Shown here: positions 29,166 to 42,890 of the stretch, piece by piece
Numbering within the stretch: the stretch's first letter is position 1
Layout: each line of letters opens with the position of its first letter
Origin: a virus
DNA length: 64,000 bases
Direction: 5' to 3' (one strand)
Virus record (IMG/VR): IMGVR_UViG_3300029915_000016
Coordinates: 18,613 to 82,612 of that record
Program-made: the position numbers and the translations under genes
Notes under the pieces: model-generated
What the model saw: the letters and a program-made list of their open reading frames with translations, nothing else
Database searches by the model: none
Told to the model about the DNA's origin: nothing

Positions 29166-30047
29166 ATGAAAAACAGACGATGGGGCGATAACGACAAGTA
29201 TTGGGGTCCGTTTACATACGCGCATTCGGATAAAGAATACAATCCTTTCGCGGTTATACTTGGATCTGGAGACGAGGAGCATCCGGGGTGCTATCTCAGG
29301 CTTGGTGCATTCCATAGGACGCTGATCTGTTCGCTCCCGCCGATCATTCCACCGTATCGCAGGAAGGTAGTTGCGAAGTTTTGGAACGAGGATGACATTA
29401 AGCGTCTAGGACGCAACTGGTACTACGACGTTCATGAGCGTGAGTACGGATTCTCCTATGCCGCGAGTGGATGTATCGGAGATGGTGGATTTCTGCAAGT
29501 CTTTCTTGGCCGTCAGACGCACGACAGCAGCAACGAACAGCGGTGGTCATGCTTCACGCCATGGAATAAATGGAATAACTGGCGTCATGTGAGGAATAGT
29601 TATTACGGTTTGTATGGAGAGTTTTTTGCATCCGAACCACAGCATCGTATCGACTTCACTACGAAGGCAGGAAACGACAAGTACGCGGAGTGGACGGCGA
29701 TTGTGGATGCTTGCCCTACGTTTACGTTCGCATTCAATGACTTTGACGGTGAGTTGCTAACCGCCAAAACTCGTATCGAGGAGCGCCAGTGGGAACTTGG
29801 AACTGGATGGTTTAAGTGGCTATCTAATTTCCATAAGCCAATCATTCACCGTTCGCTTGATATTCAATTCTCAGGCGAAACCGGAAAGCGCAAAGGATCA
29901 TGGAAGGGTGGCACGGTAGGACATTCTATCGAGATGCTACCCGGAGAACTGCACGAGTCGGCGTTTAAGAGATACTGCAAAGAGCACGATATGGTATTCC
30001 TTGGCAGGAGCGGAATAGGAGCATTTGACAATTCCCGTAGTGTGTGA
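29166..30047 (+). CDS. Hypothetical protein
   Basis: RBS AGGAG; long ORF. Confidence 0.6.
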   Translation: MKNRRWGDNDKYWGPFTYAHSDKEYNPFAVILGSGDEEHPGCYLRLGAFHRTLICSLPPIIPPYRRKVVAKFWNEDDIKRLGRNWYYDVHEREYGFSYAASGCIGDGGFLQVFLGRQTHDSSNEQRWSCFTPWNKWNNWRHVRNSYYGLYGEFFASEPQHRIDFTTKAGNDKYAEWTAIVDACPTFTFAFNDFDGELLTAKTRIEERQWELGTGWFKWLSNFHKPIIHRSLDIQFSGETGKRKGSWKGGTVGHSIEMLPGELHESAFKRYCKEHDMVFLGRSGIGAFDNSRSV

Positions 30048-30053
30048 GAGGAT
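30025..30053 (+). promoter_or_regulatory. Putative promoter of tRNA operon 1
   Basis: TTGACA-N17-GAGGAT (weak -10). Confidence 0.45.
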
Positions 30054-30060
30054 TTACCTC

Positions 30061-30132
30061 ATGAAGAACTTGTGCTTATCTCTATCGTCTTATTGCTCAC
30101 TCAGTCTGAGTGGACGAGAGGCTATGGGATAA
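30061..30132 (+). CDS. Leader peptide 1 (MKNLCLSLSSYCSLSLSGREAMG)
   Basis: Codons 4-17 are all Leu/Cys/Ser/Tyr, matching downstream tRNAs. Confidence 0.85.
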   Translation: MKNLCLSLSSYCSLSLSGREAMG

Positions 30133-30156
30133 GTCCAAGTTTAGGATTTGTACCAC

Positions 30157-30185
30157 GAGCCTCCAGAAATGGGGGCTTTTGTTTT
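30157..30185 (+). terminator. Attenuator terminator 1
   Basis: GAGCCTCCA-GAAA-TGGGGGCTT + TTGTTTT; leader GAGGCT can pair with AGCCTC. Confidence 0.8.
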
Positions 30186-30187
30186 GT

Positions 30188-30266
30188 GGGAGAGTACGCC
30201 AACGGAAGAGCGTTTGGACTTAAAATCCAAAGGATATGACGGGTTCAAATCCCTCCTCTCCTACCA
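30188..30266 (+). tRNA. trnL: tRNA-Leu(TAA)
   Basis: Cloverleaf; TTGGA-ctTAAaa-TCCAA; CCA end. Confidence 0.8.
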
Positions 30267-30268
30267 TT

Positions 30269-30341
30269 GTGCCGTAAGCGAAGGACGAGCATCCGATCTG
30301 CAAAATCGGAGAACAGGGTTAAAGTCCCTGACGGCACTCCA
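30269..30341 (+). tRNA. trnC: tRNA-Cys(GCA)
   Basis: CCGAT-ctGCAaa-ATCGG; U discriminator; CCA. Confidence 0.85.
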
Positions 30342-30353
30342 AGTTTAAGATGT

Positions 30354-30439
30354 GCGCGTGTAGCAAAACGGCAAAGCGCAAGGTTTAGGCCCTTGAGGTG
30401 GAAACACCATTGGGAGTTCGAGTCTCCCCACGCGCACCA
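30354..30439 (+). tRNA. trnL: tRNA-Leu(TAG)
   Basis: CAAGG-ttTAGgc-CCTTG; long variable arm; CCA. Confidence 0.9.
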
Positions 30440-30452
30440 GATTTTAGAAGTA

Positions 30453-30530
30453 CCTCGCATGGCGAAATGGAAGAGCGGCGCTCTCAAAAAGCGTGTCATA
30501 TTCCCGGTTCGAGTCCGGGTGCGAGGACCA
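30453..30530 (+). tRNA. trnL: tRNA-Leu(CAA)
   Basis: GCGCT-ctCAAaa-AGCGT; CCA. Confidence 0.8.
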
Positions 30531-30531
30531 C

Positions 30532-30620
30532 GGAGAAGTGCCAGAACGGTAAATGGGCCGCACTGCTAATGCGGTGGTCCTGAAAAGGCCACGTGGGGTC
30601 AGCACCCACCTTCTCCGCCA
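30532..30620 (+). tRNA. trnS: tRNA-Ser(GCT)
   Basis: CCGCA-ctGCTaa-TGCGG; long arm; GCCA. Confidence 0.85.
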
Positions 30621-30627
30621 TGTTTAC

Positions 30628-30718
30628 GGAAGGATGAGCGGAATTGGTATCGCACTCGCTTGGAAAGCGAGCTTATGTCGAAAGGCATATGCAGGTTCGA
30701 GTCCTGTTCCTTCCGCCA
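30628..30718 (+). tRNA. trnS: tRNA-Ser(GGA)
   Basis: CTCGC-ttGGAaa-GCGAG; GCCA. Confidence 0.9.
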
Positions 30719-30722
30719 GTTT

Positions 30723-30813
30723 GGTATACGCCGTCAACGGTGAGACAATCCGCCTCGAAAACGGATGGGGTGTCAGAGATGGCACAGGAGTTCAATTCTC
30801 TCGTATACCGCCA
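30723..30813 (+). tRNA. trnS: tRNA-Ser(CGA)
   Basis: ctCGAaa loop; long arm; GCCA. Confidence 0.85.
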
Positions 30814-30818
30814 AGTTA

Positions 30819-30906
30819 GGCGAGTCCCGCAGACGGCTCTGCGAACGGCTTTGAATACCGTTGGCTCCTGAGAGGGATGGGGGATCGACACCTCGACTCG
30901 CCGCCA
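30819..30906 (+). tRNA. trnS: tRNA-Ser(TGA)
   Basis: ttTGAat loop; long arm; GCCA. Confidence 0.8.
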
Positions 30907-30912
30907 TGTTGT

Positions 30913-31003
30913 GCGTTGGCTGTAGTGACGGTGGACTGCACCAGACTGTAAATCTGGATTCTCTTTGAGGACACTGGGGGTTCAAATCCCTCCCAACGCA
31001 CCA
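30913..31003 (+). tRNA. trnY: tRNA-Tyr(GTA)
   Basis: CCAGA-ctGTAaa-TCTGG; ACCA. Confidence 0.9.
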
Positions 31004-31006
31004 GTA

Positions 31007-31426
31007 TTAAATATCCGAGTTGTACCAGCGAATCATCTTCCTAAATTCGCTTAATCTAATACAGATACAATGATTAATATATTGGCGAAGTGGAGAAATA
31101 ATAACTACATCTGGCATCTTCTTCATTATCCATTTCCCTTTTACCTTGACTCCAATCCGGGTAACTATCTCTGCGCCATAGGAACCTAACCTTAATCCAT
31201 CATTAGGTTTTTTATCTGTTAAGGTGGTCATGTCAAACGTGCTGACAAAATCTACTGCTTTACGGAAGTCTTTGATCGGAATCGTCACATCAGAAAAGTA
31301 TCCACGTACAGACACACGGAACCACATCCTTTTTCCGTCTGCCGTGACGCGAGCATCAAAACCCGGTGCTTCAAACACCGCTACGTTTACATCCCAATTA
31401 TTCCCGTTCAGATCGCGTGGTTTCAT
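31007..31426 (-). CDS. Hypothetical protein, probably leaderless
   Basis: TATAAT just upstream of ATG 31426; internal duplication IPIKDFRK/IRLSEFRK. Confidence 0.5.
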   Translation of the reverse strand: MKPRDLNGNNWDVNVAVFEAPGFDARVTADGKRMWFRVSVRGYFSDVTIPIKDFRKAVDFVSTFDMTTLTDKKPNDGLRLGSYGAEIVTRIGVKVKGKWIMKKMPDVVIISPLRQYINHCICIRLSEFRKMIRWYNSDI

Positions 31427-31734
31427 GAAAGCATTATACATCAAATCAAATAAGGCGCATTTTTTCCTTGACAACTCGCAAGGATAGCGATACGCTTTCT
31501 TTGGGTCTGGATGGCTTCGTATCCCGTTCAAGACGGACCCCACAAATGTCTACCAACGGGAGATAGGAGATAGCTTCTCGGTAGCTATCTGACTTGGTGG
31601 AGTCCTATTCAATACGAAATGGGCCAGAATTTGACGCGGGGAGACGGTATTTATACGTTTCCCCGTTTTCTGTTATACTAGGGGTGTCGGATGTGTCACC
31701 ATCCGGCAAAGCCTCATCGTTCGGAGGAACGAAT

Positions 31735-32475
31735 ATGACACCCCTATCCAAAGATACACCTATTACTCGTAAACGCGAAAGAGCATTATATTATCGAGAG
31801 TATAGGAAGAAAAAAGGTGCAAATCAAAGATCAGAACAAGAAGCCTTGCGTCTAAAAGCATTAGAAGAATACATCAAAAACCCAAACGTATGCTTGTTTT
31901 GCTCAAAAGTAATTGAACCTAAAATAACAGAAAAACTCTCGATAACTAAACGTAAGAGATACTGTGACGTTAAATGCTCAAGTGCGTCAAGAAAGAGAGA
32001 GTGTAAGTGTGTACCATGCATCTACTGCGGTAAACCATTAAAGAGACACCTAAAGAAATTCTGCACGAAAAGCTGCGCGTCTCGGTCAAGGGGAATCTTG
32101 CAATCTATTACGAAAGGCGATCTTTTCTCGAAAAGATCTGGATACCAATCGGCGAGGAGCGCCATACAAAGGGATGCTAGAACTGTGTACTTGTGGAGTA
32201 AAAGGAAACTGGAGTGTTTAATTTGTGGATACTCGAAGCATGTGGATATAGCGCACATCAAACCTGTTTCAGATTTCGATGATGCGTGTACTGTCGCTGA
32301 GATAAACGCGATGGATAACCTTGTTTCTCTATGTCCTAATCACCATTGGGAATTTGATCACGGTTTTTTGAAATTCAACGCTGGTTGCTTTGAAGGATCG
32401 AATACACGTAAAGTAATCCGAAAACGTGATTACGATCAAATAAACCTATTTCCACTAGCGCAGAATAATTCTTGA
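31735..32475 (+). CDS. HNH endonuclease with N-terminal Cys clusters
   Basis: CLICG...AHIKP...NLVSLCPNHH; RBS GGAGG. Confidence 0.85.
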   Translation: MTPLSKDTPITRKRERALYYREYRKKKGANQRSEQEALRLKALEEYIKNPNVCLFCSKVIEPKITEKLSITKRKRYCDVKCSSASRKRECKCVPCIYCGKPLKRHLKKFCTKSCASRSRGILQSITKGDLFSKRSGYQSARSAIQRDARTVYLWSKRKLECLICGYSKHVDIAHIKPVSDFDDACTVAEINAMDNLVSLCPNHHWEFDHGFLKFNAGCFEGSNTRKVIRKRDYDQINLFPLAQNNS

Positions 32476-32506
32476 CAACTGTATATAATTGCGTTATCGT
32501 TTAATT

Positions 32507-32584
32507 CGCGGGGTGGACTGGAGACGGTTCCAGCTTGGTCTCATAAGCCAAATCACGTCGGTTCGATTCCGATTCCCGCAACCA
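32507..32584 (+). tRNA. trnfM: tRNA-fMet(CAT), initiator type
   Basis: C1:A72 mismatch; ctCATaa; own promoter TTGACA-N17-TATCGT (32472-32500). Confidence 0.8.
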
Positions 32585-32658
32585 TTTCGAGACGTGACCT
32601 GATCTGTCTCAACGGGCTTGCACGATGACAAGCGCATCTAGCAATAAGGAGAATTGAG

Positions 32659-33018
32659 ATGCGTACACGCTGCAAGTTCAAAGTTGTGTCGGTGGAAGAA
32701 ATAGAAGGCGAAATCAGCCGCAAATCATTTAAGGGCGATTACGGAACCAACATCGATGAGTACGGTGGTCTAGCTGGACCGGAATACACCGAGAGTCAGG
32801 GTTTAAGAAACGGTGAACAGTACAAATGGGTTCCAACTGGGAAGTATTGCCAGAATGTACGGCTGGCCGCACAGTATGATTCGCGGGACTCGGAAGATAT
32901 GAGTTTTGCAGCGGCGACACCTTCAGGAGAACTCAAGATTCTTGTGAGTAACCCTGTGGTGGTTGGGAGTTTTAGGCCGGGGAAGAGTTTTTATCTCGAC
33001 CTGATTCCGTGTGAATAA
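32659..33018 (+). CDS. Hypothetical phage protein
   Basis: RCKFKV...ATPSGEL...NP...F.PGK.FYLD family motif; RBS AAGGAG. Confidence 0.7.
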   Translation: MRTRCKFKVVSVEEIEGEISRKSFKGDYGTNIDEYGGLAGPEYTESQGLRNGEQYKWVPTGKYCQNVRLAAQYDSRDSEDMSFAAATPSGELKILVSNPVVVGSFRPGKSFYLDLIPCE

Positions 33019-33238
33019 GGTTCCACGTCCCCTCACGGTATGGTGACGTGGTGGTGGTCCGGTGGGGTGCAAACCCTATTGGGGTCTGACAGCCGGGAAA
33101 GACCGGCAAGGATTGATGGGTTGCGTCGGCGCATCCCTTAACGGGTGGCCTAGGAGTTAGGAAACCAGACGGTTGTTACCGTTGGACGGAGAATACCGCT
33201 AGAACAGTTGGGCCGATGAGATGGGCGCTGTGGCACTC

Positions 33239-34480
33239 GTGAATCACCGTCATCTAAATCAGACAGTTTCCGGCTTCAATGGCATCTGCGTTAGCTAAAG
33301 ACTTGCGTCCCAACTTCCGTCTTACGTTGCCTCCACCAGCAGTAGCGCCAATCCCTGACGCCAGTATCCGTAAACCTTCGTCACGGATATTCTTCGCCGC
33401 ATTTATATCGCGGTCATGATGTGTTGAGCAGGATGGGCAGGTCCAAGAACGAACAATTAACGGCATCTTACCATTCTGAAATCCGCACTCGGAACAAACT
33501 TTGCTTGACGGAAAAAAGCGTCCTATTTTTATGAAAGCCTTACCATCGCGCTCTGCTTTGTACTTGAGAAACAATGTTAGTGTTCCCCACCCTACATCTG
33601 ATACTGCTTTCGCAAGGTTATGGTTAGCTATCATTCCCTTCACATTCAAATCCTCTACGATCACGACTTGGTTCTCATCAATGATCTTGCGAGAGACTTT
33701 GTGAAGGTAATCACGGCGCTGGTTTGTGATATGTTCATGAACTCGTGCAACCTGAATACGTGCTTTGTTGCGACTTGATGAGCCTTTCTTTTTGCGACTC
33801 AAAGATTGCTGCTTACGCTTTAGATTCTTTTCTGACTTGGCAATCCAGCGAGGATTATTAAACTTCGATCCATCGCTAGTAATTGCTAAATGCGTTAAAC
33901 CTACGTCTACACCGATTGCCTTCCCTTCGATAGAAATAGGAGGAACAGGAATAGAATCATCGGTAAGAATCGAAGCGTAGTAGTGGCCGCATGGATTCTT
34001 GCTCACCGTGACCGTCTTGATTCGTCCAACAATCTCACGGTGTATGACAGCCTTAACTTTGCCAACTTTAGGAAGATTTATTATACTCCCGTCTATTTTA
34101 ACGTGTTGCGGATACTGAATCGACTGTTTTCTATGCTTAGATTTGAATCGTGGATATCTAGCCCTCTTCTCAAAGAAGTTCTGGAACGCTGCTGCCAAAT
34201 TACGAATTGATGATTGAAGGACTTGCGCGTATGCGTCTTTCATCCATTCATGTTCTGTTTTCAATTCAGGCAAACGATTCGCCATTGCAACAAATGTGAG
34301 ACTTTTTCCGGTTTCCTTGTACACTTTCTGCGTTTCCGCCAAAGCCCAATTCCACGTCCAACGAGCACATCCAAACTGGCATACAAGTAAATTTTCCTGC
34401 TCAAAGGTGGGATAGAGACGAAATTTTGTCGTATTCAACATTTATTTAATCCTACCATGTATACGATTAAATGTCAATAT
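33239..34480 (-). mobile_element. IS200/IS605-derived tnpB unit with right end; no TnpA and no visible left end
   Basis: RE hairpin CTGTC..GACGG then TTCAC ending 33239; own TTGACA-N17-TAGGAT promoter. Confidence 0.6.
33254..34441 (-). CDS. tnpB: TnpB RNA-guided nuclease
   Basis: GVDVG, VEDL, Zn ribbon, DRDINAA; RuvC D-E-D intact. Confidence 0.95.
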   Translation of the reverse strand: MLNTTKFRLYPTFEQENLLVCQFGCARWTWNWALAETQKVYKETGKSLTFVAMANRLPELKTEHEWMKDAYAQVLQSSIRNLAAAFQNFFEKRARYPRFKSKHRKQSIQYPQHVKIDGSIINLPKVGKVKAVIHREIVGRIKTVTVSKNPCGHYYASILTDDSIPVPPISIEGKAIGVDVGLTHLAITSDGSKFNNPRWIAKSEKNLKRKQQSLSRKKKGSSSRNKARIQVARVHEHITNQRRDYLHKVSRKIIDENQVVIVEDLNVKGMIANHNLAKAVSDVGWGTLTLFLKYKAERDGKAFIKIGRFFPSSKVCSECGFQNGKMPLIVRSWTCPSCSTHHDRDINAAKNIRDEGLRILASGIGATAGGGNVRRKLGRKSLANADAIEAGNCLI

Positions 34481-34546
34481 TTCTCTATTTTTGCGTTTAC
34501 TTATTTCACTAAGATGTGATATAAAAAGTAACAGCAACAAGTTTAC

Positions 34547-34620
34547 GGTCCCATGGTCTAACGGTATGATTCATCTCTGTCTAAGATGCGTTCGGGGTTC
34601 GACTCCCCGTGGGATCGCCA
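34547..34620 (+). tRNA. trnD: tRNA-Asp(GTC)
   Basis: CATCT-ctGTCta-AGATG; GCCA. Confidence 0.85.
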
Positions 34621-34627
34621 TAGTTGT

Positions 34628-34711
34628 GCTGCCGTTCTCGGTACTGGTATCTGAGCACCGTCTTTCAAGCGGTTGAATTTAATGCGAGTTCGATTCTCGT
34701 CGGCAGCGCCA
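34628..34711 (+). tRNA. trnE: tRNA-Glu(TTC)
   Basis: ACCGT-ctTTCaa-GCGGT; GCCA. Confidence 0.8.
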
Positions 34712-34718
34712 AGTTTAT

Positions 34719-34793
34719 GTCCTTGTCTTCCAACGTTTAGGAACTCCGGCTCTCTACCGGATAACGCGGGGTAAGCACCCTCCAAGGACACCA
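34719..34793 (+). tRNA. trnE: tRNA-Glu(CTC)
   Basis: TCCGG-ctCTCta-CCGGA; atypical T loop; CCA. Confidence 0.75.
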
Positions 34794-34805
34794 TTTCGAG
34801 AACGT

Positions 34806-34907
34806 ATGACGAGAACGCAGATCGCAATAGGATTTGTAGTCAAGGTAGCAACCAAGATGTTTTGGTGGATAATTTTGATATTCCTGTTGTGGATACAAAG
34901 TTTGTGA
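34806..34907 (+). CDS. 33-aa hydrophobic peptide
   Basis: MTRTQIAIGFVVKVATKMFWWIILIFLLWIQSL. Confidence 0.35.
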   Translation: MTRTQIAIGFVVKVATKMFWWIILIFLLWIQSL

Positions 34908-35048
34908 GTTTGTGCGGCGGCGTGGAGCGACACGCTAAACCTTATCGTGATATTCATCCCCCACGAGATAAGATAAGGTGAGGAAGATTGGGGGAACGAC
35001 CTGTATGCCGGTTTCGTACCCGGCCCGCACAAATAAATCACAAACTGC

Positions 35049-35078
35049 TTGACATTTGAAAACGAACAAGGATATAGT
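35049..35078 (+). promoter_or_regulatory. Promoter of tRNA operon 2
   Basis: TTGACA-N18-TATAGT; ATG 7 nt downstream. Confidence 0.7.
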
Positions 35079-35085
35079 GAAAAAC

Positions 35086-35160
35086 ATGATGACCTTTACC
35101 ACACATACCGCGACACAAGCACCGACGCAGCCAGCCGGTAATCGCGGAAGTGCAGGATAG
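35086..35160 (+). CDS. Leader peptide 2 (MMTFTTHTATQAPTQPAGNRGSAG)
   Basis: Codons 3-21 all T/F/H/A/Q/P/G/N/R, the amino acids of the downstream tRNAs. Confidence 0.85.
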   Translation: MMTFTTHTATQAPTQPAGNRGSAG

Positions 35161-35203
35161 GGTCTCAGTAGGATTTTTACTCGCATAGCGAATAAAACTG
35201 AAG

Positions 35204-35236
35204 AGGCCCGGTTCAAACCAACGAATCGGGCCTTAG
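35204..35236 (+). terminator. Attenuator hairpin 2 (weak U tract)
   Basis: AGGCCCGGTTC/GAATCGGGCCT; competing GGGTCTC at 35160 pairs with GAGGCCC. Confidence 0.6.
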
Positions 35237-35251
35237 TGCGTAGGAGTAGCA

Positions 35252-35689
35252 ATGGGGAAAGCGATTCACGTTATTAGCAATGTTGATGAAGATATGAAGA
35301 CGGCAGATTGTGCGTTTTGTGGTCGCGTGAAAGTGAAACTGAAAAATAATGGTAAGGGTAGATCAAGGCGGTGGGCATGTACTATCGCGCAGAAAAAATG
35401 GGACGGTGCAAGATGTAAAACAGGAAAACCGCTTCGCAATATGACAGACGAGCAAATGGCTCACTACGTATTCAATCGACACGGAAGTTGTGATATTTGC
35501 GGTAGCGTACCACGCCGAATGTTGAACCGAGATCACTGCCATGTAACAGGAAACCTTCGCGGCTTGCTGTGCTATCGCTGTAATACGCTGCTAGGAAAAT
35601 TTGATGACAGCATCGAGAAACTCCGTATAAAGGCAGATATTTTCCTGAAGGCGGCATGTTATCTCGAAAGGAACGATACAAAGTTTTGA
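35252..35689 (+). CDS. Endonuclease VII-family nuclease
   Basis: CDICG..RDHCH.TG.LRGLLCYRCN. Confidence 0.85.
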   Translation: MGKAIHVISNVDEDMKTADCAFCGRVKVKLKNNGKGRSRRWACTIAQKKWDGARCKTGKPLRNMTDEQMAHYVFNRHGSCDICGSVPRRMLNRDHCHVTGNLRGLLCYRCNTLLGKFDDSIEKLRIKADIFLKAACYLERNDTKF

Positions 35690-35778: not shown

Positions 35779-35791
35779 TTTAGTAAGAAGT

Positions 35792-36203: not shown

Positions 36204-36238
36204 TTTCAAGAGAGTCAAGCTACGGATTGAGGTACGTG

Positions 36239-36784
36239 ATGAGCACGTTGATGAAAAAGCCGGTTTTGGTCCTTAACGCCTCGTATGAGCCGATCAGGAT
36301 AGTTCCAGCGCGTCGTGCTCTCACGTTGATTTGTAAGGGTGCTGCAATGGTTGAGCAACCTACACGGATAGAAGTCTATCCGGGTATAACTCTACCATCT
36401 GTAATCCGGCTTAGGACATATCGGCATATTCCTATACGCCTTCAAATTGTCAGTCGCAAGAACATTTATATCCGTGACGGTCATAGGTGCGGATATTGTG
36501 GACAGCAATTCAAAGGTGATGAACTGACGTTAGATCACATTCAACCAAGATCCCGTGGAGGAAAGAACGACTGGTCTAACCTAGTAACTTGCTGCCGAAA
36601 AGACAACCATCGTAAGGCAGACAGGACGCCAGAGGAGGCAGGAATGAAACTGCTCCGTAAGCCTCTTCCGGCAACAGTTCACACAGGACGTGGATTGCTA
36701 CGTTCCATGGCGCTTGAAGTTGGGGCGTGGGAAAAGTATTTGTATTCCGACTCAAAAGGAGAAACGAAGTTGCAGTTTTCGTAA
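36239..36784 (+). CDS. HNH endonuclease (McrA-like)
   Basis: VLVLNASYEP, RDGHRCGYCG, TLDHIQPRSRGG, WSNLV. Confidence 0.9.
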   Translation: MSTLMKKPVLVLNASYEPIRIVPARRALTLICKGAAMVEQPTRIEVYPGITLPSVIRLRTYRHIPIRLQIVSRKNIYIRDGHRCGYCGQQFKGDELTLDHIQPRSRGGKNDWSNLVTCCRKDNHRKADRTPEEAGMKLLRKPLPATVHTGRGLLRSMALEVGAWEKYLYSDSKGETKLQFS

Positions 36785-36788
36785 GTTT

Positions 36789-36860
36789 GCCGAATGCTCT
36801 GAGTAGCAGCGGGAGCTTGTATCTCCTGCCCGGTCGGTTCGATTCCGACATTCGGCTCCA
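36789..36860 (+). tRNA. trnT: tRNA-Thr(TGT)
   Basis: GGAG-ctTGTat-CTCC; TCCA. Confidence 0.75.
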
Positions 36861-36960
36861 AGTGGCTGAGGAAGCCAATCCGTTAAGCGTGGAGCACATG
36901 GCTTAACGGGCTAGGGGACACGGGGCGAGTGCTACGCAATCCGACTCCACCAAAGTTCAT

Positions 36961-37036
36961 GGCGGCTATAGTTCAGAGGCAGAACGCCGGTCTGTGGCAT
37001 CGGATGTCGGGATTTCAAAATTCCCTAGCCGCCCCA
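36961..37036 (+). tRNA. trnH: tRNA-His(GTG)
   Basis: G-1:C73; ctGTGgc. Confidence 0.85.
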
Positions 37037-37043
37037 TTTTAAC

Positions 37044-37118
37044 GGGCCAGTAGCATAGATGTAATGCGTCACCCCTGCAAGGTGAAGTTCGAGGACTCAA
37101 GCCCCTCCTGGTCCACCA
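37044..37118 (+). tRNA. trnA: tRNA-Ala(TGC)
   Basis: G3:U70; TCACC-ccTGCaa-GGTGA. Confidence 0.8.
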
Positions 37119-37127
37119 GTTTTGTAC

Positions 37128-37204
37128 GGCACTGTAGCTCAGAATGGTAGAGCAGGACTCTGAAAAGGTCCGTGTCGCGGTCTCGATAGCCGCCAGTGCC
37201 ACCA
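37128..37204 (+). tRNA. trnF: tRNA-Phe(GAA)
   Basis: GGACT-ctGAAaa-GGTCC; ACCA. Confidence 0.85.
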
Positions 37205-37205
37205 T

Positions 37206-37283
37206 CGGAATGTAGCGTAGTCTGCTTAACGCGCTCGCTTCGGGAGCGAGAGATCGCAGGTCGAAATCCTGCCATTCCGACCA
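37206..37283 (+). tRNA. trnP: tRNA-Pro(CGG)
   Basis: CTCGC-ttCGGga-GCGAG. Confidence 0.9.
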
Positions 37284-37289
37284 GTTTAA

Positions 37290-37364
37290 CGGGGTGTAGC
37301 TCAAAGGAAGAGCACTAGTTTTGGGAACTAGAGGCTGTGGTATCGTGATCCACCACCCCGACCA
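37290..37364 (+). tRNA. trnP: tRNA-Pro(TGG)
   Basis: CTAGT-ttTGGga-ACTAG. Confidence 0.85.
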
Positions 37365-37380
37365 TCTATTAGGAGTAGCG

Positions 37381-37626
37381 ATGAGGGATATAACAATACA
37401 GGAAGCATCCGAGTGTATCAAGAGAACGCTACCGCGCTGCACGCCTGATATTTGGTTTCTCACGCGCTTCAAGGATTACGTGAATAACAACACAGAAGTT
37501 GACGATATGGAGGAAGATGAATTTTTCGATAGTTTTCTTCCTTGCGCTTTGTGGGCTTTCACTGAAGCGATGTACAGCACGATTATGCCAGTTACTAGGT
37601 TTGGCGAATGTGCGCCTCTAGCTTAA
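37381..37626 (+). CDS. Small hypothetical protein
   Basis: RBS AGGAG; 3' end overlaps tRNA-Arg. Confidence 0.5.
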   Translation: MRDITIQEASECIKRTLPRCTPDIWFLTRFKDYVNNNTEVDDMEEDEFFDSFLPCALWAFTEAMYSTIMPVTRFGECAPLA

Positions 37627-37687
37627 TGGAAAGAGCGGCACTCTACGAAAGTGTCAGGTTCCCGTTCAAGTCGGGAGGGGCGTACCA
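37612..37687 (+). tRNA. trnR: tRNA-Arg(ACG)
   Basis: GCACT-ctACGaa-AGTGT; ACCA. Confidence 0.85.
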
Positions 37688-37717
37688 AAGATTTTCACAT
37701 GCAAGCAAAAATAGTGC

Positions 37718-37746
37718 TTGCAATTGCGCAGAGTTTGATGTAAGGT
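37718..37746 (+). promoter_or_regulatory. Putative promoter of the Y RNA/Ro60 operon
   Basis: TTGCAA-N17-TAAGGT with TG extension. Confidence 0.55.
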
Positions 37747-37865
37747 TGGAAATGTTGAGTTTGAGCTTCGGTGCAGGAATGGAAACATGACCATCCTGAC
37801 GAATTAGGTCTCAGAGTATCGAGCCTTGTAGCTAGGTTACAGGACGGCTACCACCGGAAATAAGT

Positions 37866-38011
37866 AAGCGAGAGCCGGAAGAGTTGGATTATCGCCTATG
37901 GAGCGGGTTATACGGGTTCGAGTCCCGTCTGGGGAACCAATAACGAATCGACTTCCCCGGTCGTCTAATGGCAGGACGCCTAAACATCCAGTTCGCTATT
38001 TGTTCTCGCTT
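37866..38011 (+). ncRNA. Y RNA-like 1 (YrlA-type; T arm before D arm)
   Basis: Terminal stem with GAGCCGGAAG/CTATTTGTTC; GGTTCGAGTCC precedes GTCTAATGGCAGGAC. Confidence 0.75.
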
Positions 38012-38018
38012 TAAGTTT

Positions 38019-38148
38019 TGCACGAGCCGTCCGAATTTCGTTATCCTCCGCCAAACTGGGGGCGTAGCTTAATGGCTAAAGCGCCAGAGTAATCTGGATA
38101 TTGGGTTCGAGTCCCACGTCAACGCGAAGTTCAATTTTTGTTCGTGCA
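38019..38148 (+). ncRNA. Y RNA-like 2 with embedded tRNA-like D/AC/T arms
   Basis: Same terminal motif; TAGCTTAATGG...GGTTCGAGTCC. Confidence 0.7.
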
Positions 38149-38155
38149 GTTTTTT

Positions 38156-38214
38156 GTACGGGTCGGAAGCCAGCGTTACCTTGTAAATATCGCTGTCTGA
38201 TTATTTATCCGTAC
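38156..38214 (+). ncRNA. Y RNA-like 3 (short)
   Basis: GTACGGGTCGGAAG...TTATTTATCCGTAC. Confidence 0.6.
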
Positions 38215-38230
38215 CAATGGAGAGTGAATC

Positions 38231-38710
38231 ATGGGTTTCATAGCCGAAGTTTCAGCCACAGATAGGTTTTGGAGTAAGGTTGATAAATCGGCTGGGCATG
38301 GTCCAAACGGGGACTGTTGGGTTTGGACTGCACGTAGGAATTTAGATGGCTATGGGCAGTTTCGTCCTTCCTCTTGGAGATCAGGTGGTAAACTTGTAAG
38401 CGCACACGTATTTTCGTATCGCGAGAGTTTTGGCGAGTTTGATGCTGGATTACAAGTCCTGCATCGCTGCGATAATCCGGCTTGCGTTAGGGCAGAACAT
38501 TTGTTTGTAGGTACGCAGGGTGACAATGTTCACGACATGATAGCGAAAAATAGATCGGGCCTAAATTTTCTTGGCTCTGATGTGATCGCTAACATTCTCG
38601 CGATGCATGGCAAAGGGATTAAACAGACAGAAATTGCCAAGAACGTTGGGATACACAAGCAATCTGTCTGGAGAATCATTAAGAGGATGGCGGTAAAATC
38701 CTTGGCGTGA
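38231..38710 (+). CDS. HNH endonuclease with C-terminal HTH
   Basis: RFWSKV..CWVW..VLHRCDNPACV..HLFVGT..DN. Confidence 0.9.
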   Translation: MGFIAEVSATDRFWSKVDKSAGHGPNGDCWVWTARRNLDGYGQFRPSSWRSGGKLVSAHVFSYRESFGEFDAGLQVLHRCDNPACVRAEHLFVGTQGDNVHDMIAKNRSGLNFLGSDVIANILAMHGKGIKQTEIAKNVGIHKQSVWRIIKRMAVKSLA

Positions 38711-38717
38711 TAAGTTT

Positions 38718-38787
38718 TGCATGGGTCGTTTGGCTCAGCGTTATCCTTCTAAGATAAAACCGCTGGCTGGTTGTTTTTATCCATGCA
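38718..38787 (+). ncRNA. Y RNA-like 4
   Basis: TGCATGGGTCG...TTTTATCCATGCA. Confidence 0.6.
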
Positions 38788-38795
38788 GTGTTTCA

Positions 38796-38938
38796 AAGTG
38801 CGAGTCGAAAGAAGTTGATTATCTCAACATGAATGTCATGGGTTCGATTCCCATCGTCGTAGTAATACGATGTAGCTCAGTTGGTAGAGCGTCTGGATGC
38901 CGAAAGGCGTATTCGACTTCAACCATTTATTCGCACTT
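38796..38938 (+). ncRNA. Y RNA-like 5 (YrlA-type; T arm before D arm)
   Basis: GTCGAAAG motif; GGTTCGATTCC then TAGCTCAGTTGGTAGAGC. Confidence 0.75.
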
Positions 38939-38942
38939 AAGT

Positions 38943-39044
38943 TTGTCAGAGCCGGATGGGTTTGGTTATCGGTTCAAATCCGCTACACCGCAAGGTGAAT
39001 GGCTGTCCGCAAGGACAATCCAAATCCGCTATTTGTTCTGACAA
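38943..39044 (+). ncRNA. Y RNA-like 6
   Basis: TTGTCAGAGCCG...CTATTTGTTCTGACAA; T arm; GCAA hairpins. Confidence 0.65.
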
Positions 39045-39050
39045 TAAGTT

Positions 39051-39127
39051 TGCAGGGTCGGAAGTTCACTGTTCTCTACTACGAATAGAATGCCGAAAGG
39101 CGCACGGTGGGCACTATTTATCCTGCA
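39051..39127 (+). ncRNA. Y RNA-like 7
   Basis: TGCAGGGTCGGAAG...CTATTTATCCTGCA. Confidence 0.6.
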
Positions 39128-39136
39128 TTGAATGTC

Positions 39137-39179
39137 CATAAGGGTCGAGCGGCAAAGCCGTTCCAATTTTATCCTTATG
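39137..39179 (+). ncRNA. Y RNA-like 8 (minimal; directly upstream of Ro60 RBS)
   Basis: CATAAGGGTCG...TTTTATCCTTATG. Confidence 0.5.
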
Positions 39180-39195
39180 ACCGGGAGAAAGACGA

Positions 39196-40881
39196 ATGAA
39201 GAACTATATCACCAATGTAATTGATCCATCCACCACGCCTCAGACTGAGGCACTTCCAAACAAAAACCAAGTGAAGAACTCCGCTGGCGGATTCGTGTTT
39301 GCTGTGACGCCATGGACCCGGCTTGAGAGGTTCCTTGTACTGGGAACTGAGGGCGGATCATACTACGCATCAGAGCGCGATCTGACCAAGACCAACATCG
39401 ATGGCCTCAAGTCTGCTTTGGCTGAGGATGGCATCCGGTTTGTCAACACGGTTGCCCAAATCAGTCATGCTGGCCGTGCGCCGAAGAATGATCCTGCGTT
39501 GTTTGCATTGGCTTTGGCTGTTGCCGACAAGCGCAAGGATGTATCCGCATACGCCCTGAGCAAGCTGTCAGACGTGGCGAGAATTCCCACACACCTGTTT
39601 TCCTTTGCACAGTACGTGCAGAGCCTACGGGGTTGGGGAAGGGCGCTGCGTGGTGGAGTGGCTGATTGGTATCTGTCTAAGCCTGCTGACAAGTTGGCTT
39701 ACCAACTTGCAAAGTACCAGTCGCGTAACGGATGGTCAAACGCAGACCTTTTGCGCCTGAGTCATGCCAACCCTGAGTTGCAGCCTGACCATAAGATTCT
39801 TTTGAATTGGGCTGTGAAGGGATGGGAGTCTGTTGGTGACGATCCTCATCCGTCAAAGGCTGTTCTTCCGGTGTGGGCATTTGAAAAGGCAAAGCGCCTC
39901 ACTCCTCAAACGGGAATCAAGGAACTGGTTAGTCTCATTGCGGATTACGATCTTCCGCGTGAGTGCATTCCTACCGAGTTCTTGTCTCATATTGAGGTAT
40001 GGGATGCATTGCTTCAGAAGATGCCAATGACGGCCATGATTCGCAACCTTGGAAAGATGACTTCCATCGGACTAGTCTCGCCAAACAGTGAGGCGGCAAA
40101 GATGGTAGGAAAGCGCCTTGAGGACGCAGAACTGCTCCACAAGGCACGGATTCATCCTATCTCTGTGCTGATGGCACAATCTGTCTACAAGTGCGGTCAT
40201 GGACTCAAAGGCAACTTGTCATGGTCTCCTGTACCGCGTGTTGTAAACGCTCTAGAGAAGGCTTTCTATGCTTCTTTTGCCAACGCACCAAAGACCGGAA
40301 AGAGGTTCTACATCGGCCTTGACGTTTCCGGTTCGATGGGAAGCGGATATGTTGCCGGAAGTCAATTGACTCCTCGTGAGGCTGCTGCTGCTATGGCAAT
40401 GGTAACCATGAAGACGGAGGACGAGTATTACATCGCTGGATTCACGAACGGCACATCCCGCTCTGCATGGTCTAGCCAAGGATATGGCTCTGGTGTCACG
40501 AAGTTGGAATTGACTCCTGATATGACTTTGAAAGCTGCTTGCCGGTACACTTCTGATTTGCCTTTCGGTGGAACAGACTGCGCTTTGCCAATGATCGATG
40601 CTTTGGAGAAGAAGATCCCTGCGGACGTGTTCATGGTCATCACTGACTCTGAAACGTGGGCAGGAACCAAGCACCCAACCGTTGCTTTGCAGGAATACCG
40701 CAACAAGATGAAGATCGACGCCAAGTTGATCGTCATGGGAATGGTATCGAACGAGTTCACGATTGCCGATCCTACCGATGCGGGACAGATGGACGTGGTT
40801 GGATTCGATGCGTCCGTTCCACAGGTCATCGCTCAGTTCATCGGCGTGGATGAGCCTCTGGCTGTTGAAACAGACGACTAA
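39196..40881 (+). CDS. rsr: Ro60/Rsr TROVE-vWA RNA-binding protein
   Basis: NSAGGFVF, RLERFLVLGTEGGSYY, GWGRALR, KYQSRNGWS, MIRNLGKM, vWA DVSGSM, ITDSET. Confidence 0.95.
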   Translation: MKNYITNVIDPSTTPQTEALPNKNQVKNSAGGFVFAVTPWTRLERFLVLGTEGGSYYASERDLTKTNIDGLKSALAEDGIRFVNTVAQISHAGRAPKNDPALFALALAVADKRKDVSAYALSKLSDVARIPTHLFSFAQYVQSLRGWGRALRGGVADWYLSKPADKLAYQLAKYQSRNGWSNADLLRLSHANPELQPDHKILLNWAVKGWESVGDDPHPSKAVLPVWAFEKAKRLTPQTGIKELVSLIADYDLPRECIPTEFLSHIEVWDALLQKMPMTAMIRNLGKMTSIGLVSPNSEAAKMVGKRLEDAELLHKARIHPISVLMAQSVYKCGHGLKGNLSWSPVPRVVNALEKAFYASFANAPKTGKRFYIGLDVSGSMGSGYVAGSQLTPREAAAAMAMVTMKTEDEYYIAGFTNGTSRSAWSSQGYGSGVTKLELTPDMTLKAACRYTSDLPFGGTDCALPMIDALEKKIPADVFMVITDSETWAGTKHPTVALQEYRNKMKIDAKLIVMGMVSNEFTIADPTDAGQMDVVGFDASVPQVIAQFIGVDEPLAVETDD

Positions 40882-40900
40882 CAACAACCGATTGTGAGCA

Positions 40901-40934
40901 GGGGGTGCGGGAATATTCGCACTCCCTATTTTTT
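40901..40934 (+). terminator. Intrinsic terminator after Ro60
   Basis: GGGGTGCGG/TCGCACTCC + T run. Confidence 0.7.
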
Positions 40935-40945
40935 CAGGAGTAAAC

Positions 40946-41269
40946 ATGTATATCGTAGCTCTAATCTGGATGCACTTTGTATCTGATTTCGTCCTACAAT
41001 CGGACAAGATGGCGATCAATAAGTCAAAGGATAACCGTTGGCTCTTCTTTCACTGCCTTGTGTACTCTACACCATTCTTTGTCTTTGGATGGAAGTTTGG
41101 ATGCGTCACACTCCTATTCCATTTCGTGACAGACTACTTCACATCTCGTGGAACGTCCTACTTGTGGAAGAAAGAGATGCGCCACTGGTTCTTCACTTTA
41201 ATCGGCTTCGATCAAGCGATCCATCTGACGACATTATTTTTCACGTACCGATTTTTATGCTTGCGTTAG
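40946..41269 (+). CDS. DUF3307-like membrane protein
   Basis: HFVSDFVLQ...K...HF.TD...DQAIH. Confidence 0.8.
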   Translation: MYIVALIWMHFVSDFVLQSDKMAINKSKDNRWLFFHCLVYSTPFFVFGWKFGCVTLLFHFVTDYFTSRGTSYLWKKEMRHWFFTLIGFDQAIHLTTLFFTYRFLCLR

Positions 41270-41289
41270 GACTCGAAGTGGTGTACATT
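41261..41289 (+). promoter_or_regulatory. Putative promoter of tRNA operon 3
   Basis: TTGCGT-N17-TACATT. Confidence 0.55.
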
Positions 41290-41337
41290 GATTTTACACC
41301 GCAGAAGATCGTGCAGTCGCAGTCGGAAGGATTGAAT

Positions 41338-41412
41338 ATGCAGATCAGGACCAAATCCGTGAGATCCATAACCATGACCGGGAAGCGGGTCATTTGGGGA
41401 ACTTGCGTATGA
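41338..41412 (+). CDS. Leader peptide 3 (MQIRTKSVRSITMTGKRVIWGTCV)
   Basis: RBS GGAAGGA; 19 of 23 post-start codons are amino acids of the downstream tRNAs. Confidence 0.85.
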   Translation: MQIRTKSVRSITMTGKRVIWGTCV

Positions 41413-41437
41413 GGGTCTGAGTGCATTTGTGGTACAC

Positions 41438-41468
41438 AGACCTTCGCCTAGAGCGAGGGTTTTTTGTT
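41438..41468 (+). terminator. Attenuator terminator 3
   Basis: AGACCTTCGC-CTAGA-GCGAGGGTTT + TTTGTT; antiterminator GAGGGTCTG (41411-41419) pairs with CAGACCTTC. Confidence 0.85.
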
Positions 41469-41484
41469 GGAGTTCTTTGACAAT

Positions 41485-41558
41485 AGGGGATTAGTCTAAT
41501 GGCAAAACGTCTGCCTCCAGAGCAGAATTTACGGGTTCGAGTCCTGTATCCCCTGCCA
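41485..41558 (+). tRNA. trnW: tRNA-Trp(CCA)
   Basis: TCTGC-ctCCAga-GCAGA; GCCA. Confidence 0.9.
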
Positions 41559-41563
41559 GATTT

Positions 41564-41632
41564 GGCACGTATCCAAGGCGGAAAGCGGCTCTCATAAAGC
41601 CGTAAACTGGTTCGAGTCCAGACGTGCTACCA
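41564..41632 (+). tRNA. tRNA-Met or Ile2 (CAT), short D arm
   Basis: CGGCT-ctCATaa-AGCCG; ACCA. Confidence 0.7.
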
Positions 41633-41693
41633 AGTTCACGGCGGTTTAAACCTAAACCGATGGCGCAACACCATCCTGCCGTGATTAGTTTTT

Positions 41694-41771
41694 GGGGGTG
41701 TAGCTAGTGTTGGCACCAGCAGTCTCCTTATAAGAGACCGTCCGAAGGTTCGATTCCTTCCACCCCTACCA
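41694..41771 (+). tRNA. trnI: tRNA-Ile(TAT)
   Basis: GTCTC-ctTATaa-GAGAC; ACCA. Confidence 0.8.
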
Positions 41772-41775
41772 TAGT

Positions 41776-41862
41776 GGGACTGTGGCCTAGTCAGGTTTTG
41801 GGCACCCGGCTCTTACCCGGCGCGGAAACGCAACGTAGGTTCAAATCCTACCAGTCCCACCA
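41776..41862 (+). tRNA. trnK: tRNA-Lys(CTT), long variable arm
   Basis: CCGG-ctCTTac-CCGG; GCGGAAACGC arm. Confidence 0.75.
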
Positions 41863-41873
41863 ACACTTTTAAC

Positions 41874-41949
41874 GGGTTTGTCCTCCAACGTCTAGGAAAC
41901 TCGCCTTTTAAGCGAAGCAATGTGGGTTAGAGTCCCACCAAACCCACCA
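41874..41949 (+). tRNA. trnK: tRNA-Lys(TTT)
   Basis: TCGC-ctTTTaa-GCGA; ACCA. Confidence 0.8.
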
Positions 41950-41950
41950 T

Positions 41951-42028
41951 GCACTCGTACCGGCCTCGCCTTCTAAGCGAGTTCACCGTAACTGGAATAT
42001 GCGAGTTCGACTCTCGCCGAGTGCCCCA
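41951..42028 (+). tRNA. trnR: tRNA-Arg(TCT), no canonical D arm
   Basis: Perfect acceptor, anticodon and T arms; only 7 nt at the D position. Confidence 0.7.
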
Positions 42029-42033
42029 GTTTT

Positions 42034-42110
42034 GCCGCTGTATCTCCCCTGCCTCCTAAGCAGGTAAGAGTAAGTGGATGATGACGGTTCGAGTCCGTCC
42101 AGCGGTTCCA
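42034..42110 (+). tRNA. trnR: tRNA-Arg(CCT), no canonical D arm
   Basis: Same architecture as the neighbouring Arg(TCT). Confidence 0.7.
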
Positions 42111-42125
42111 TGAGGGAGAAGTGAA

Positions 42126-42401
42126 ATGCGAAAGTCATCATTAACCGATCCATTGACGGACGAGGAAGTAGACGCAGCAAACGCCGATCCTAGCGACATG
42201 TGGATTCATGTGCGGTGCAAGGATTGTGGGGATGTTGAGTGTTGCTTCAACCGGACAGTAACGTCATGGCAACGTCGGTGTTTTCCTTGCCAGATGGGTT
42301 GGAAGCCGATGAAGAGCGTTAAGAAGATCGCAGAGGTCAACGGATTCAAGCCAGTTCCTATGCGACAACAGGAAGATACGTTTGATCGTGAAACACGATG
42401 A
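42126..42401 (+). CDS. Small Zn-ribbon protein
   Basis: CKDC...CFPC; RBS GGGAG. Confidence 0.55.
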   Translation: MRKSSLTDPLTDEEVDAANADPSDMWIHVRCKDCGDVECCFNRTVTSWQRRCFPCQMGWKPMKSVKKIAEVNGFKPVPMRQQEDTFDRETR

Positions 42402-42408
42402 ACTTTTT

Positions 42409-42483
42409 GCAGGCGTGGTGAAACGGAGATCACAAAGCCCCCCGAAGGCTTAATTCTCGGTTCGAATCCGAGCGCTTGTACCA
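42409..42483 (+). tRNA. trnR: tRNA-Arg(CCG)
   Basis: AAGCC-ccCCGaa-GGCTT; ACCA. Confidence 0.8.
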
Positions 42484-42491
42484 TAGTTTTT

Positions 42492-42566
42492 GCCCCGCTC
42501 GTCTAAAGGTAAAGACCGAAGTCCTACAAACTTCAGATCGGCGTTCAATTCGTCGGTGGGGCACCA
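42492..42566 (+). tRNA. trnV: tRNA-Val(TAC)
   Basis: GAAGT-ccTACaa-ACTTC; ACCA. Confidence 0.8.
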
Positions 42567-42645
42567 AGTTCGGAGTCTGAGGGTTGGTAGCCCTTGGAGG
42601 TTACAACGCACAGATCGAACACCTGTGACTCTGGGATGTGTAAAT

Positions 42646-42719
42646 GTCGATGTAGCACAGTGGCAGTGCCATTGCTCGGTAAGCAATAGACCCGCGTTCG
42701 ATTCGCGGCATCGGCTCCA
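42646..42719 (+). tRNA. trnT: tRNA-Thr(GGT)
   Basis: ATTGC-tcGGTaa-GCAAT; TCCA. Confidence 0.8.
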
Positions 42720-42720
42720 T

Positions 42721-42798
42721 GGCGGTCTAGCTCACATTGAGAAGAGCGTTCCCCTGATAAGGGAGAGGCACCCAGTTCAATTCTGGGGACCGCCACCA
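42721..42798 (+). tRNA. trnI: tRNA-Ile(GAT)
   Basis: TCCC-ctGATaa-GGGA; ACCA. Confidence 0.85.
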
Positions 42799-42806
42799 TA
42801 CGTTGT

Positions 42807-42890
42807 GCGGGTCTTGAGTAATTGGTTGCTCAGTGGTCCTCCAAACCACCGCCGTAAGGCATACGGGTTCGACCCCCGTGACCCGCTCCA
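42807..42890 (+). tRNA. trnG: tRNA-Gly(TCC), long variable arm
   Basis: GTGGT-ccTCCaa-ACCAC; GCCGTAAGGC arm; TCCA. Confidence 0.8.

Follow-up and report, generated by a model that had tools for sequence, protein, structure and literature searches.

Can a phage place its own transfer RNA (tRNA) genes under the control of translated leaders, as enterobacteria do with amino-acid biosynthetic operons? The question is raised by a 64,000-nucleotide (nt) stretch of IMG/VR virus record IMGVR_UViG_3300029915_000016, henceforth referred to as the window, in which three blocks of tRNA genes are each preceded by a short open reading frame (ORF), designated leader 1, 2 or 3, and by a hairpin. The 82.6-kb record is ~83% complete and belongs to an uncultured peat-soil phage, and the window sequence recurs across many peat metagenomes. 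It has been debated for decades whether phage tRNA genes provide codon compensation, replace host tRNAs that have been degraded or allow escape from anticodon nucleases. In the window, the arrangement of leaders, hairpins and tRNA genes is real, far beyond chance, conserved and co-varying, and the best reading is that a known mechanism has been put to a new use. Judging from sequence features, three independent ribosome-mediated transcription attenuators of the trp/ilv style probably lie 5' of the tRNA genes.

Leader codon content and the downstream tRNA blocks

ARAGORN detected 30 tRNA genes in the window, and six more were recovered by relaxed ARAGORN settings, Rfam and by-eye reading of anticodon loops, giving a total of 36 tRNAs that cover all 20 amino acids. 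Ser-UGA (30819-30906), Arg-UCU and Arg-CCU were identified by eye. A preliminary description of this DNA had claimed clusters of 9, 12 and 12 tRNA genes, each with an ORF of 23-24 amino acids on its 5' side, and both the block sizes and the ORFs were recovered (Table 1). The leaders end 55, 529 and 72 nt from the first tRNA of their blocks, on the same strand; the 529 nt include an inserted gene discussed below.

The codons of each leader matched the tRNAs of its own block. Coverage was defined as the presence of a leader codon cognate to the tRNA under standard wobble rules. Leaders 1, 2 and 3 covered 9/9, 12/12 and 12/12 of their own tRNAs (33/33 together) and 1-5 tRNAs of other blocks, and 13/22, 15/23 and 18/23 of their body codons, respectively, were cognate to the own block. 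In a chance test of leader codons against anticodons, random 23-codon draws from phage codon usage reached full coverage with p = 6e-4, 2.4e-4 and 6.7e-5. A blind six-frame scan of the whole window found full-coverage stretches at just 18, 4 and 2 places, leaders included.

Amino acids shared between blocks were divided by isoacceptor. Arginine is represented by CGC in leader 2 (tRNA-ACG) and by AGG, AGA and CGG in leader 3 (CCU, UCU and CCG), glycine by GGU in the sensor zone of leader 2 and by GGG/GGA in leader 3, and threonine by ACA/ACG in leader 2 and solely by ACC/ACU in leader 3. The earlier claim that the Arg and Thr codons are split in this way was borne out.

Alternative pairing and predicted ribosome-position control

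At all three leaders, a stretch in or beside the stop codon can pair with the 5' arm of the downstream hairpin, as had been described. In the predicted fold, antiterminator 1 contains the stop codon at 30130-30132 and captures terminator bases 30158-30163. Hairpins 1 and 3 carry U-runs, and both are within the region's top three terminator-like sites. The -10 elements of leaders 1 and 2 end 7 nt 5' of the ATG, and this short distance suggests that the messenger RNAs (mRNAs) of these two leaders are near-leaderless.

The effect of ribosome position was modelled by setting a ribosome footprint on each codon in turn and folding the transcript as it would stand before the 3' arm of the hairpin is made. 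In these predicted folds, the terminator 5' arm was paired upstream with the A site at codons 2-16 of leader 1, 2-21 of leader 2 and 2-21 of leader 3. The antiterminator was lost once the ribosome neared the stop codon, with the boundary falling where the sensor codons end. Each stop codon is located 25-27 nt 5' of the terminator arm, so that a terminating ribosome would mask the antiterminator and be unable to melt the terminator. The modelled polarity is classical, with fast decoding leading to termination and a stall leading to read-through. When no ribosome was placed, the leaders were predicted to self-fold and the terminator still to form, and trp superattenuation likewise has its terminator formed when no ribosome is present. 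In a cmscan search of positions 28000-45000 (E <= 0.01), the only matches were to the tRNA clan and to YrlA, with no Rfam leader family and no T-box.

Table 1 Positions of the leaders, regulatory elements, tRNA blocks and associated genes in the window.
Feature	Position	Strand	Details
Promoter-like site, leader 1	30025-30053	+	TTGACA, 17 nt, GAGGAT; read from sequence; same layout in relatives
Leader ORF 1	30061-30132	+	23 codons, MKNLCLSLSSYCSLSLSGREAMG; sensor codons 4-17: Leu, Cys, Ser, Tyr
Antiterminator 1	30118-30163	+	30118-30136 pairs with 30145-30163; nascent-transcript fold -25.3 kcal/mol, z = -3.6; ribosome-position scan
Intrinsic terminator 1	30157-30186	+	GC-rich 9-bp stem, then UUUUGUUUUG
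tRNA block 1	30188-31003	+	9 genes: Leu-UAA, Cys-GCA, Leu-UAG, Leu-CAA, Ser-GCU, Ser-GGA, Ser-CGA, Ser-UGA, Tyr-GUA
Promoter-like site and tRNA-Met(CAU)	32472-32584	+	tRNA at 32507; no leader
TnpB element	33254-34441	-	between tRNA-Met and tRNA-Asp/Glu
tRNA-Asp and tRNA-Glu	34547-34711	+	no leader
Promoter-like site, leader 2	35049-35078	+	TTGACA, 18 nt, TATAGT; top-scoring site of the region, 11/12 matches
Leader ORF 2	35086-35160	+	24 codons, MMTFTTHTATQAPTQPAGNRGSAG; sensor codons: Thr, Phe, His, Ala, Gln, Pro, Gly, Asn, Arg
Antiterminator 2	35155-35214	+	35155-35166 (with stop codon 35158-35160) pairs with 35203-35214; fold -25 kcal/mol; ribosome-position scan
Hairpin 2	35203-35234	+	12 bp, -20.8 kcal/mol, no U-tract; Shine-Dalgarno and ATG of the next gene come after
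Endonuclease VII-family gene (Pfam PF02945)	35252-35689	+	between hairpin 2 and tRNA-Asn
tRNA block 2	35690-37687	+	12 genes: Asn, Gln-CUG, Gln-UUG, Gly-GCC, Thr-CGU, (HNH_5 gene 36239-36784), Thr-UGU, His, Ala-UGC, Phe, Pro-CGG, Pro-UGG, Arg-ACG
Leader ORF 3	41338-41412	+	24 codons, Shine-Dalgarno GGAAGGA, MQIRTKSVRSITMTGKRVIWGTCV; sensor codons: Ile, Arg, Thr, Lys, Val, Met, Gly, Trp
Antiterminator 3	41410-41446	+	41410-41419 (stop UGA + GGGUCUG) pairs with 41437-41446; nascent-transcript fold; ribosome-position scan
Intrinsic terminator 3	41438-41470	+	with U-run
tRNA block 3	41485-42890	+	12 genes: Trp, Met, Ile-UAU, Lys-CUU, Lys-UUU, Arg-UCU, Arg-CCU, (ORF 42126-42401), Arg-CCG, Val-UAC, Thr-GGU, Ile-GAU, Gly-UCC
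Six extra tRNAs	30723, 30819, 37044, 41874, ~41950, ~42030		Ser-CGA, Ser-TGA, Ala-TGC, Lys-TTT, Arg-TCT, Arg-CCT, in that order

Conservation in complete relatives

The terminase large subunit led to three complete relatives, G001, G002 and G003, of 122-143 kb (protein 54-69% identical). Their tRNA arrays are syntenic with the window, and most of their tRNAs are too diverged for blastn. Five further terminase relatives contained no tRNAs, and megablast and blastn searches of the region against cultured phages returned no relative, only stray tRNA hits. Contigs from four sequencing runs yielded pieces identical to the window and fragments of relatives, with nothing decisive on the leaders. The runs in which this phage occurs are all peat metagenome DNA, with no RNA run among those listed.

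All three leaders are present in G001-G003, and the hairpins and the ribosome-position logic were predicted to be kept in the nine homologues. Across the four genomes, 130/134 own-block tRNAs were covered by the 12 leaders, which matched 1-5 tRNAs from other blocks. In 20,000 trials of a synonymous-codon shuffle with amino acids fixed and phage codon usage applied, coverage averaged 111 of 134 and never exceeded 126; the four genomes are kin and not statistically independent, and this result is thus supportive and carries no exact probability. The residue order of the leader peptides drifts among the relatives while the codon set is kept, as exemplified by the four versions of leader 2. Paired isoacceptor codons are also kept, including CAA+CAG, CCA+CCG, AAA+AAG, ATA+ATC/ATT and four Ser codon types. 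Leader 3 is conserved in 12 other phage contigs, with KRVIWG among the conserved segments, and the conserved 3' parts of the leaders coincide with the RNA pairing strands.

Covariation was scored in an alignment of 13 leader-3 homologues against 500 shuffles. In the terminator 3 helix, 90% of cells pair, 19 cells carry double changes and 0/500 shuffles matched the observed score. For antiterminator 3, 82% of cells pair compared to 28-57% with the partner slid. Alignment column 106, located in the shared arm, co-changes with its antiterminator partner and with its terminator partner.

Matched leaders in other viral tRNA arrays

The HNH_5 protein encoded within block 2 lies between tRNA-Thr(CGU) and tRNA-Thr(UGU) in 4/4 related genomes. 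In the majority of 80 further IMG/VR loci (L139-L218), homologues are located within tRNA arrays, and they also occur in the cultured phages Tunturi 5 and S-CBWM1, with matches in S-TIM5, S-CRM01 and Mx1. By its genomic placement, HNH_5 behaves as an array resident and not as a random homing gene.

HNH-linked arrays were scanned blindly by scoring each short ORF ending 15-170 nt 5' of a tRNA block. The scan returned 12 non-redundant ORFs at p < 1e-3, where random codons would give 0.27 (at most 1) and mismatched blocks 1.9. Matched leaders were found in 33/66 other viral tRNA-array loci, and a hairpin with a T-run was present at 46/51 leader sites. Arrays with a different sorting of amino acids have differently composed, matched leaders; for example, the leader MISQINGCYQTVAFWAKGKEPDRS precedes Phe, Lys, Trp, Arg, Cys, Ser, Ile, Val, Asn, Tyr, Gly and Ala tRNAs. 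Leader and array thus co-vary across loci, as the preliminary description would require.

The same design is present in Tunturi 5, a cultured jumbo phage of Tunturiibacter psychrotolerans, in which three leaders cover 8/9, 14/15 and 15/15 of their tRNAs. Asp and Glu tRNAs belong to block 3 of this phage, and many Asp/Glu codons are present in its leader 3, for which the only annotation is hypothetical protein. The paper describing Tunturi 5 makes no mention of leaders or attenuation. Genes for a CCA-adding enzyme and an RtcB-type tRNA ligase (10988-12436 and 21615-22796; L219, PP885688) lie beside the Tunturi 5 arrays, and their position hints at a tRNA repair context.

A conserved TTTGACA(A/T)A motif was observed right after many leader terminators, 10-25 nt 5' of the first tRNA (window 41476-41484; L133, L134, L151, L157, L192, L194, L210, L214 and L219). 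The motif looks like a -35 box and is too near the tRNA to serve that tRNA.

Proposed mechanism

From the anatomy, codon statistics, conservation, terminator covariation and thermodynamic predictions described above, we infer leader translation, ribosome stalling, read-through and a physiological trigger, arranged as follows. A host sigma-70-type RNA polymerase would start a short, probably near-leaderless transcript at each leader, and a ribosome would read the 23-24-codon ORF, which holds at least one codon per downstream tRNA species. Prompt decoding would bring the ribosome to the stop codon, in or beside the 5' strand of the antiterminator, and would melt the antiterminator helix; the terminator would then form and transcription would stop short of the tRNA genes. 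If decoding of any one sensor codon were slow because its charged tRNA is scarce, the ribosome would stall upstream, the antiterminator would capture the terminator 5' arm and the whole block would be transcribed. The outcome would be codon-resolved negative feedback on tRNA supply, and one codon per tRNA suits the detection of near-total loss of a single species.

The preliminary description had likewise read the locus as ribosome-mediated attenuation, and the codon match, the placement of the stop codons in or beside the antiterminators, the predicted folds, the conservation and the co-variation all support that reading. Its term "network" was overstated. The locus consists of three parallel, independent switches, and Met, Asp and Glu form a fourth, unattenuated tRNA group. 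The Met(-Asp-Glu) group has its promoter directly 5' of the tRNA, without a leader, both in the window and in the relatives.

The trigger may be host anticodon nucleases or plain feedback, and a link to the nucleases is plausible. Tentatively, and with somewhat less than even confidence, the leaders may represent a widespread large-phage device, spread over soil and aquatic lineages and including Tunturi 5, that monitors the tRNA pool at single-isoacceptor resolution. If a host anticodon nuclease, for instance, or phage-induced decay of host tRNA removed one species, only the block carrying its replacement would open. Such a device would make the long-standing question of the purpose of phage tRNAs directly testable.

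Several observations weigh against the attenuation reading. The preliminary description had placed a promoter before each cluster, and this held for leader 2, whose site is the best of the region; at leader 1 the weak -10 (GAGGAT) fails a consensus promoter scan, and the region before leader 3 showed no convincing promoter. The reading also assumes near-leaderless translation and polymerase pausing. Some leader codons lack an own-block tRNA, namely ACC (three times) and GGA (twice) in leader 2 and TCC (twice) in leader 3, and leader 2 of G002 retains a Phe codon when no Phe tRNA was found in G002. By analogy with classical attenuators, one codon per tRNA would give poor sensitivity to mild starvation. 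The covariation of the antiterminator taken alone was not significant, with 46/500 shuffles reaching the observed score, and its pairing is mostly conserved. To these is added the kinship of the four genomes compared above. With the same scan, no matched leader was found in T5 or in Synechococcus phage S-CBWM1. Among Ro60-anchored loci, an array was present only in L024, where no matched leader was seen and where the array may start outside the locus.

Hairpin 2 is a further point of this kind, and here the earlier account required correction, since the hairpin in the window is without a U-tract and is not a canonical terminator. Its homologues in G001 and G002 have U-runs. The endonuclease VII-family gene that follows has its Shine-Dalgarno sequence directly 3' of hairpin 2 and its stop codon abutting tRNA-Asn. 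The homologous site is free of any gene in G001 and G003 and contains a comparable insertion in G002, where the U-run was kept. By this comparison the gene is probably an insertion. Because hairpin 2 lacks the U-tract and is followed by this gene, block 2 may be deregulated in the window, through constitutive read-through or a different control.

Alternative explanations

The alternative that survives best keeps the switch and changes its purpose. The same leaders could serve as a homeostat or timer of the phage's own tRNA output, open early while host tRNAs for phage-preferred codons are limiting and shut as phage tRNAs accumulate, with no role as a sensor of defence nucleases. The sensed tRNAs are exactly those produced, which is the signature of product feedback, and the near-complete set of 36 tRNAs for 20 amino acids is not focused on known nuclease targets. 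However, single codons respond poorly to graded shortage, and the tRNA repair genes by homologous arrays (the RtcB-type ligase and CCA-adding enzyme of Tunturi 5), together with Ro60 and Y RNA in the window, hint at tRNA damage. Both purposes could apply at once, and the homeostat falls somewhat short of an even chance.

A reversal of output is far less probable. Here the leaders would be translated and would sense decoding, and a stall would uncouple the ribosome and cause Rho termination, or the output would run by another route such as mRNA cleavage. The missing U-tract of hairpin 2 would allow non-intrinsic termination to act at that site. Canonical intrinsic terminators nevertheless follow leaders 1 and 3 and are present at 46/51 related leader sites, the alternative pairing has classical polarity in the predicted folds, and shut-off of tRNA genes during tRNA shortage would make little sense.

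It is slightly less likely still that the hairpins act constitutively as partial terminators, or as processing signals of tRNA precursors, behind untranslated ORFs, with the codon match arising by chance or as a by-product. Leaders 1 and 2 may lack a Shine-Dalgarno sequence if their transcripts begin at the nearby -10, and hairpin 2, again, is without a U-tract. Against this stand a joint chance far below 1e-6 for three well-placed ORFs with full coverage, the retention of ORFs, lengths and codon sets across diverged phages despite the drift in residue order, and the 12 matches of the blind scan where 0.27 were expected.

The least credible alternative, that the short ORFs encode functional micropeptides whose likeness in composition to the arrays has another cause, can draw on conserved segments such as KRVIWG in the leader 3 homologues, but residue order is poorly preserved where the codon set is retained, as the four versions of leader 2 show, the conserved 3' parts are RNA pairing strands and the synonymous choices track the anticodons.

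Comparison with known systems

Transcription attenuators read in this manner resemble the enterobacterial leaders thrL (Thr, Ile), ilvL of ilvGMEDA (Leu, Val, Ile), trpL, hisL, leuL and pheL, which share with them the codon-rich short ORF, the predicted overlapping antiterminator and control by ribosome position and, at leaders 1 and 3, the intrinsic terminator. In thrL and ilvL, as proposed for the phage leaders, several amino acids are sensed per leader. In contrast to the enterobacterial systems, the phage leaders would regulate tRNAs and not biosynthetic enzymes, so that the sensed molecule would be the product. They are also phage-borne and address up to 12 tRNA species per leader at isoacceptor resolution, mostly with 1-2 codons each in place of single-codon runs. 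The pheM leader of E. coli pheST attenuates an aminoacyl-tRNA synthetase in response to charged-tRNA supply and thereby, as proposed for the phage leaders, controls a component of translation; it differs in that one amino acid is sensed, the operon is protein-coding and the system is cellular. T-box riboswitches are similar in that antitermination is keyed to a specific tRNA state with codon-like specificity, whereas they bind uncharged tRNA directly, use no ribosome or ORF and respond to one tRNA per element.

The tRNA region of phage T5 is comparable in being divided into several transcription units, its tRNA genes being interspersed with promoters, terminators, HNH genes and small ORFs, and differs in the absence of a codon-matched leader by the scan used here. 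In Anabaena sp. PCC 7120, the trn operon is a silent long tRNA array induced by translational stress, and its promoter is controlled by a repressor, TrcR, acting on direct repeats that extend across the -10 and transcription start (PMC8421152, PMC10272220). These papers mention no leader peptide, attenuation or terminator (PMC8421152, PMC10272220). The trn operon is alike in being an accessory array expressed only under impaired translation, with tRNA repair genes co-regulated; it differs from the phage leaders in that its response is global and not codon-specific, and its mechanism (PMC8421152) is unlike the one to which the anatomy found here points. A full-text literature search found no account of leader-peptide control of tRNA genes, papers beyond the searched collection being possible, and this agrees with the earlier statement that such control is undescribed for tRNA arrays.

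If the attenuation reading is true, control of these arrays is conditional and codon-specific, meaning that the phage needs the tRNAs only in certain states and that each leader lists what is sensed. Leader-peptide attenuation would extend from amino-acid metabolism to the tRNA pool. No natural attenuator known to us would be more multiplexed, a single leader addressing as many as 12 species in the window and 15-16 in relatives. The leaders would also supply compact natural modules with which to report how fast chosen codons are decoded. The cultured pair of Tunturi 5 and Tunturiibacter psychrotolerans, having the same design, makes the system testable at the bench.

Neighbouring genes and other observations

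Interspersed with the tRNA genes of the window are genes for homing-type nucleases, a TnpB element and a Ro60 gene accompanied by RNAs that resemble Y RNA. A Ro60 homologue with TROVE and vWA_Ro60 domains lies beside a YrlA-like RNA (Rfam 41 bits, family cut-off 69; window 37880-38125, 38805-38919 and 39196-40881), and a second permuted tRNA-like stretch and a tRNA-like gene with a 4-nt "anticodon" loop were noted nearby. By their sequence features, these elements look like a phage Ro/Y-RNA module between blocks 2 and 3. No Ro60 was shared between the window and the examined array regions of G001-G003.

A 302-amino-acid gene (PF25187) upstream of leader 1 proved to be a widespread accessory gene without synteny to the arrays. 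Within block 2, an ORF at 36054-36230, starting MEHKMILMSADF, runs through tRNA-Thr(CGU) as far as the first bases of the HNH_5 gene; the N-terminal peptide of this ORF is also conserved in G003.

The window contains two TnpB (IS605 OrfB) genes, the one listed in Table 1 and a second at 44147-45286 (+). In G001, the Asp and Glu tRNAs adjoin Met without a TnpB gene between them, and a short-sided contig joint at 33238/34519 may represent a variant of the window without the TnpB element. G002 also encodes a permuted transfer-messenger RNA (Rfam 78 bits, L134:6220-6485). Both G002 and G003 carry tRNAs with the anticodon UCA, which would read UGA (L134:5018-5089 and 7545-7620; L135 reverse strand, 8809-8879 in reversed coordinates).

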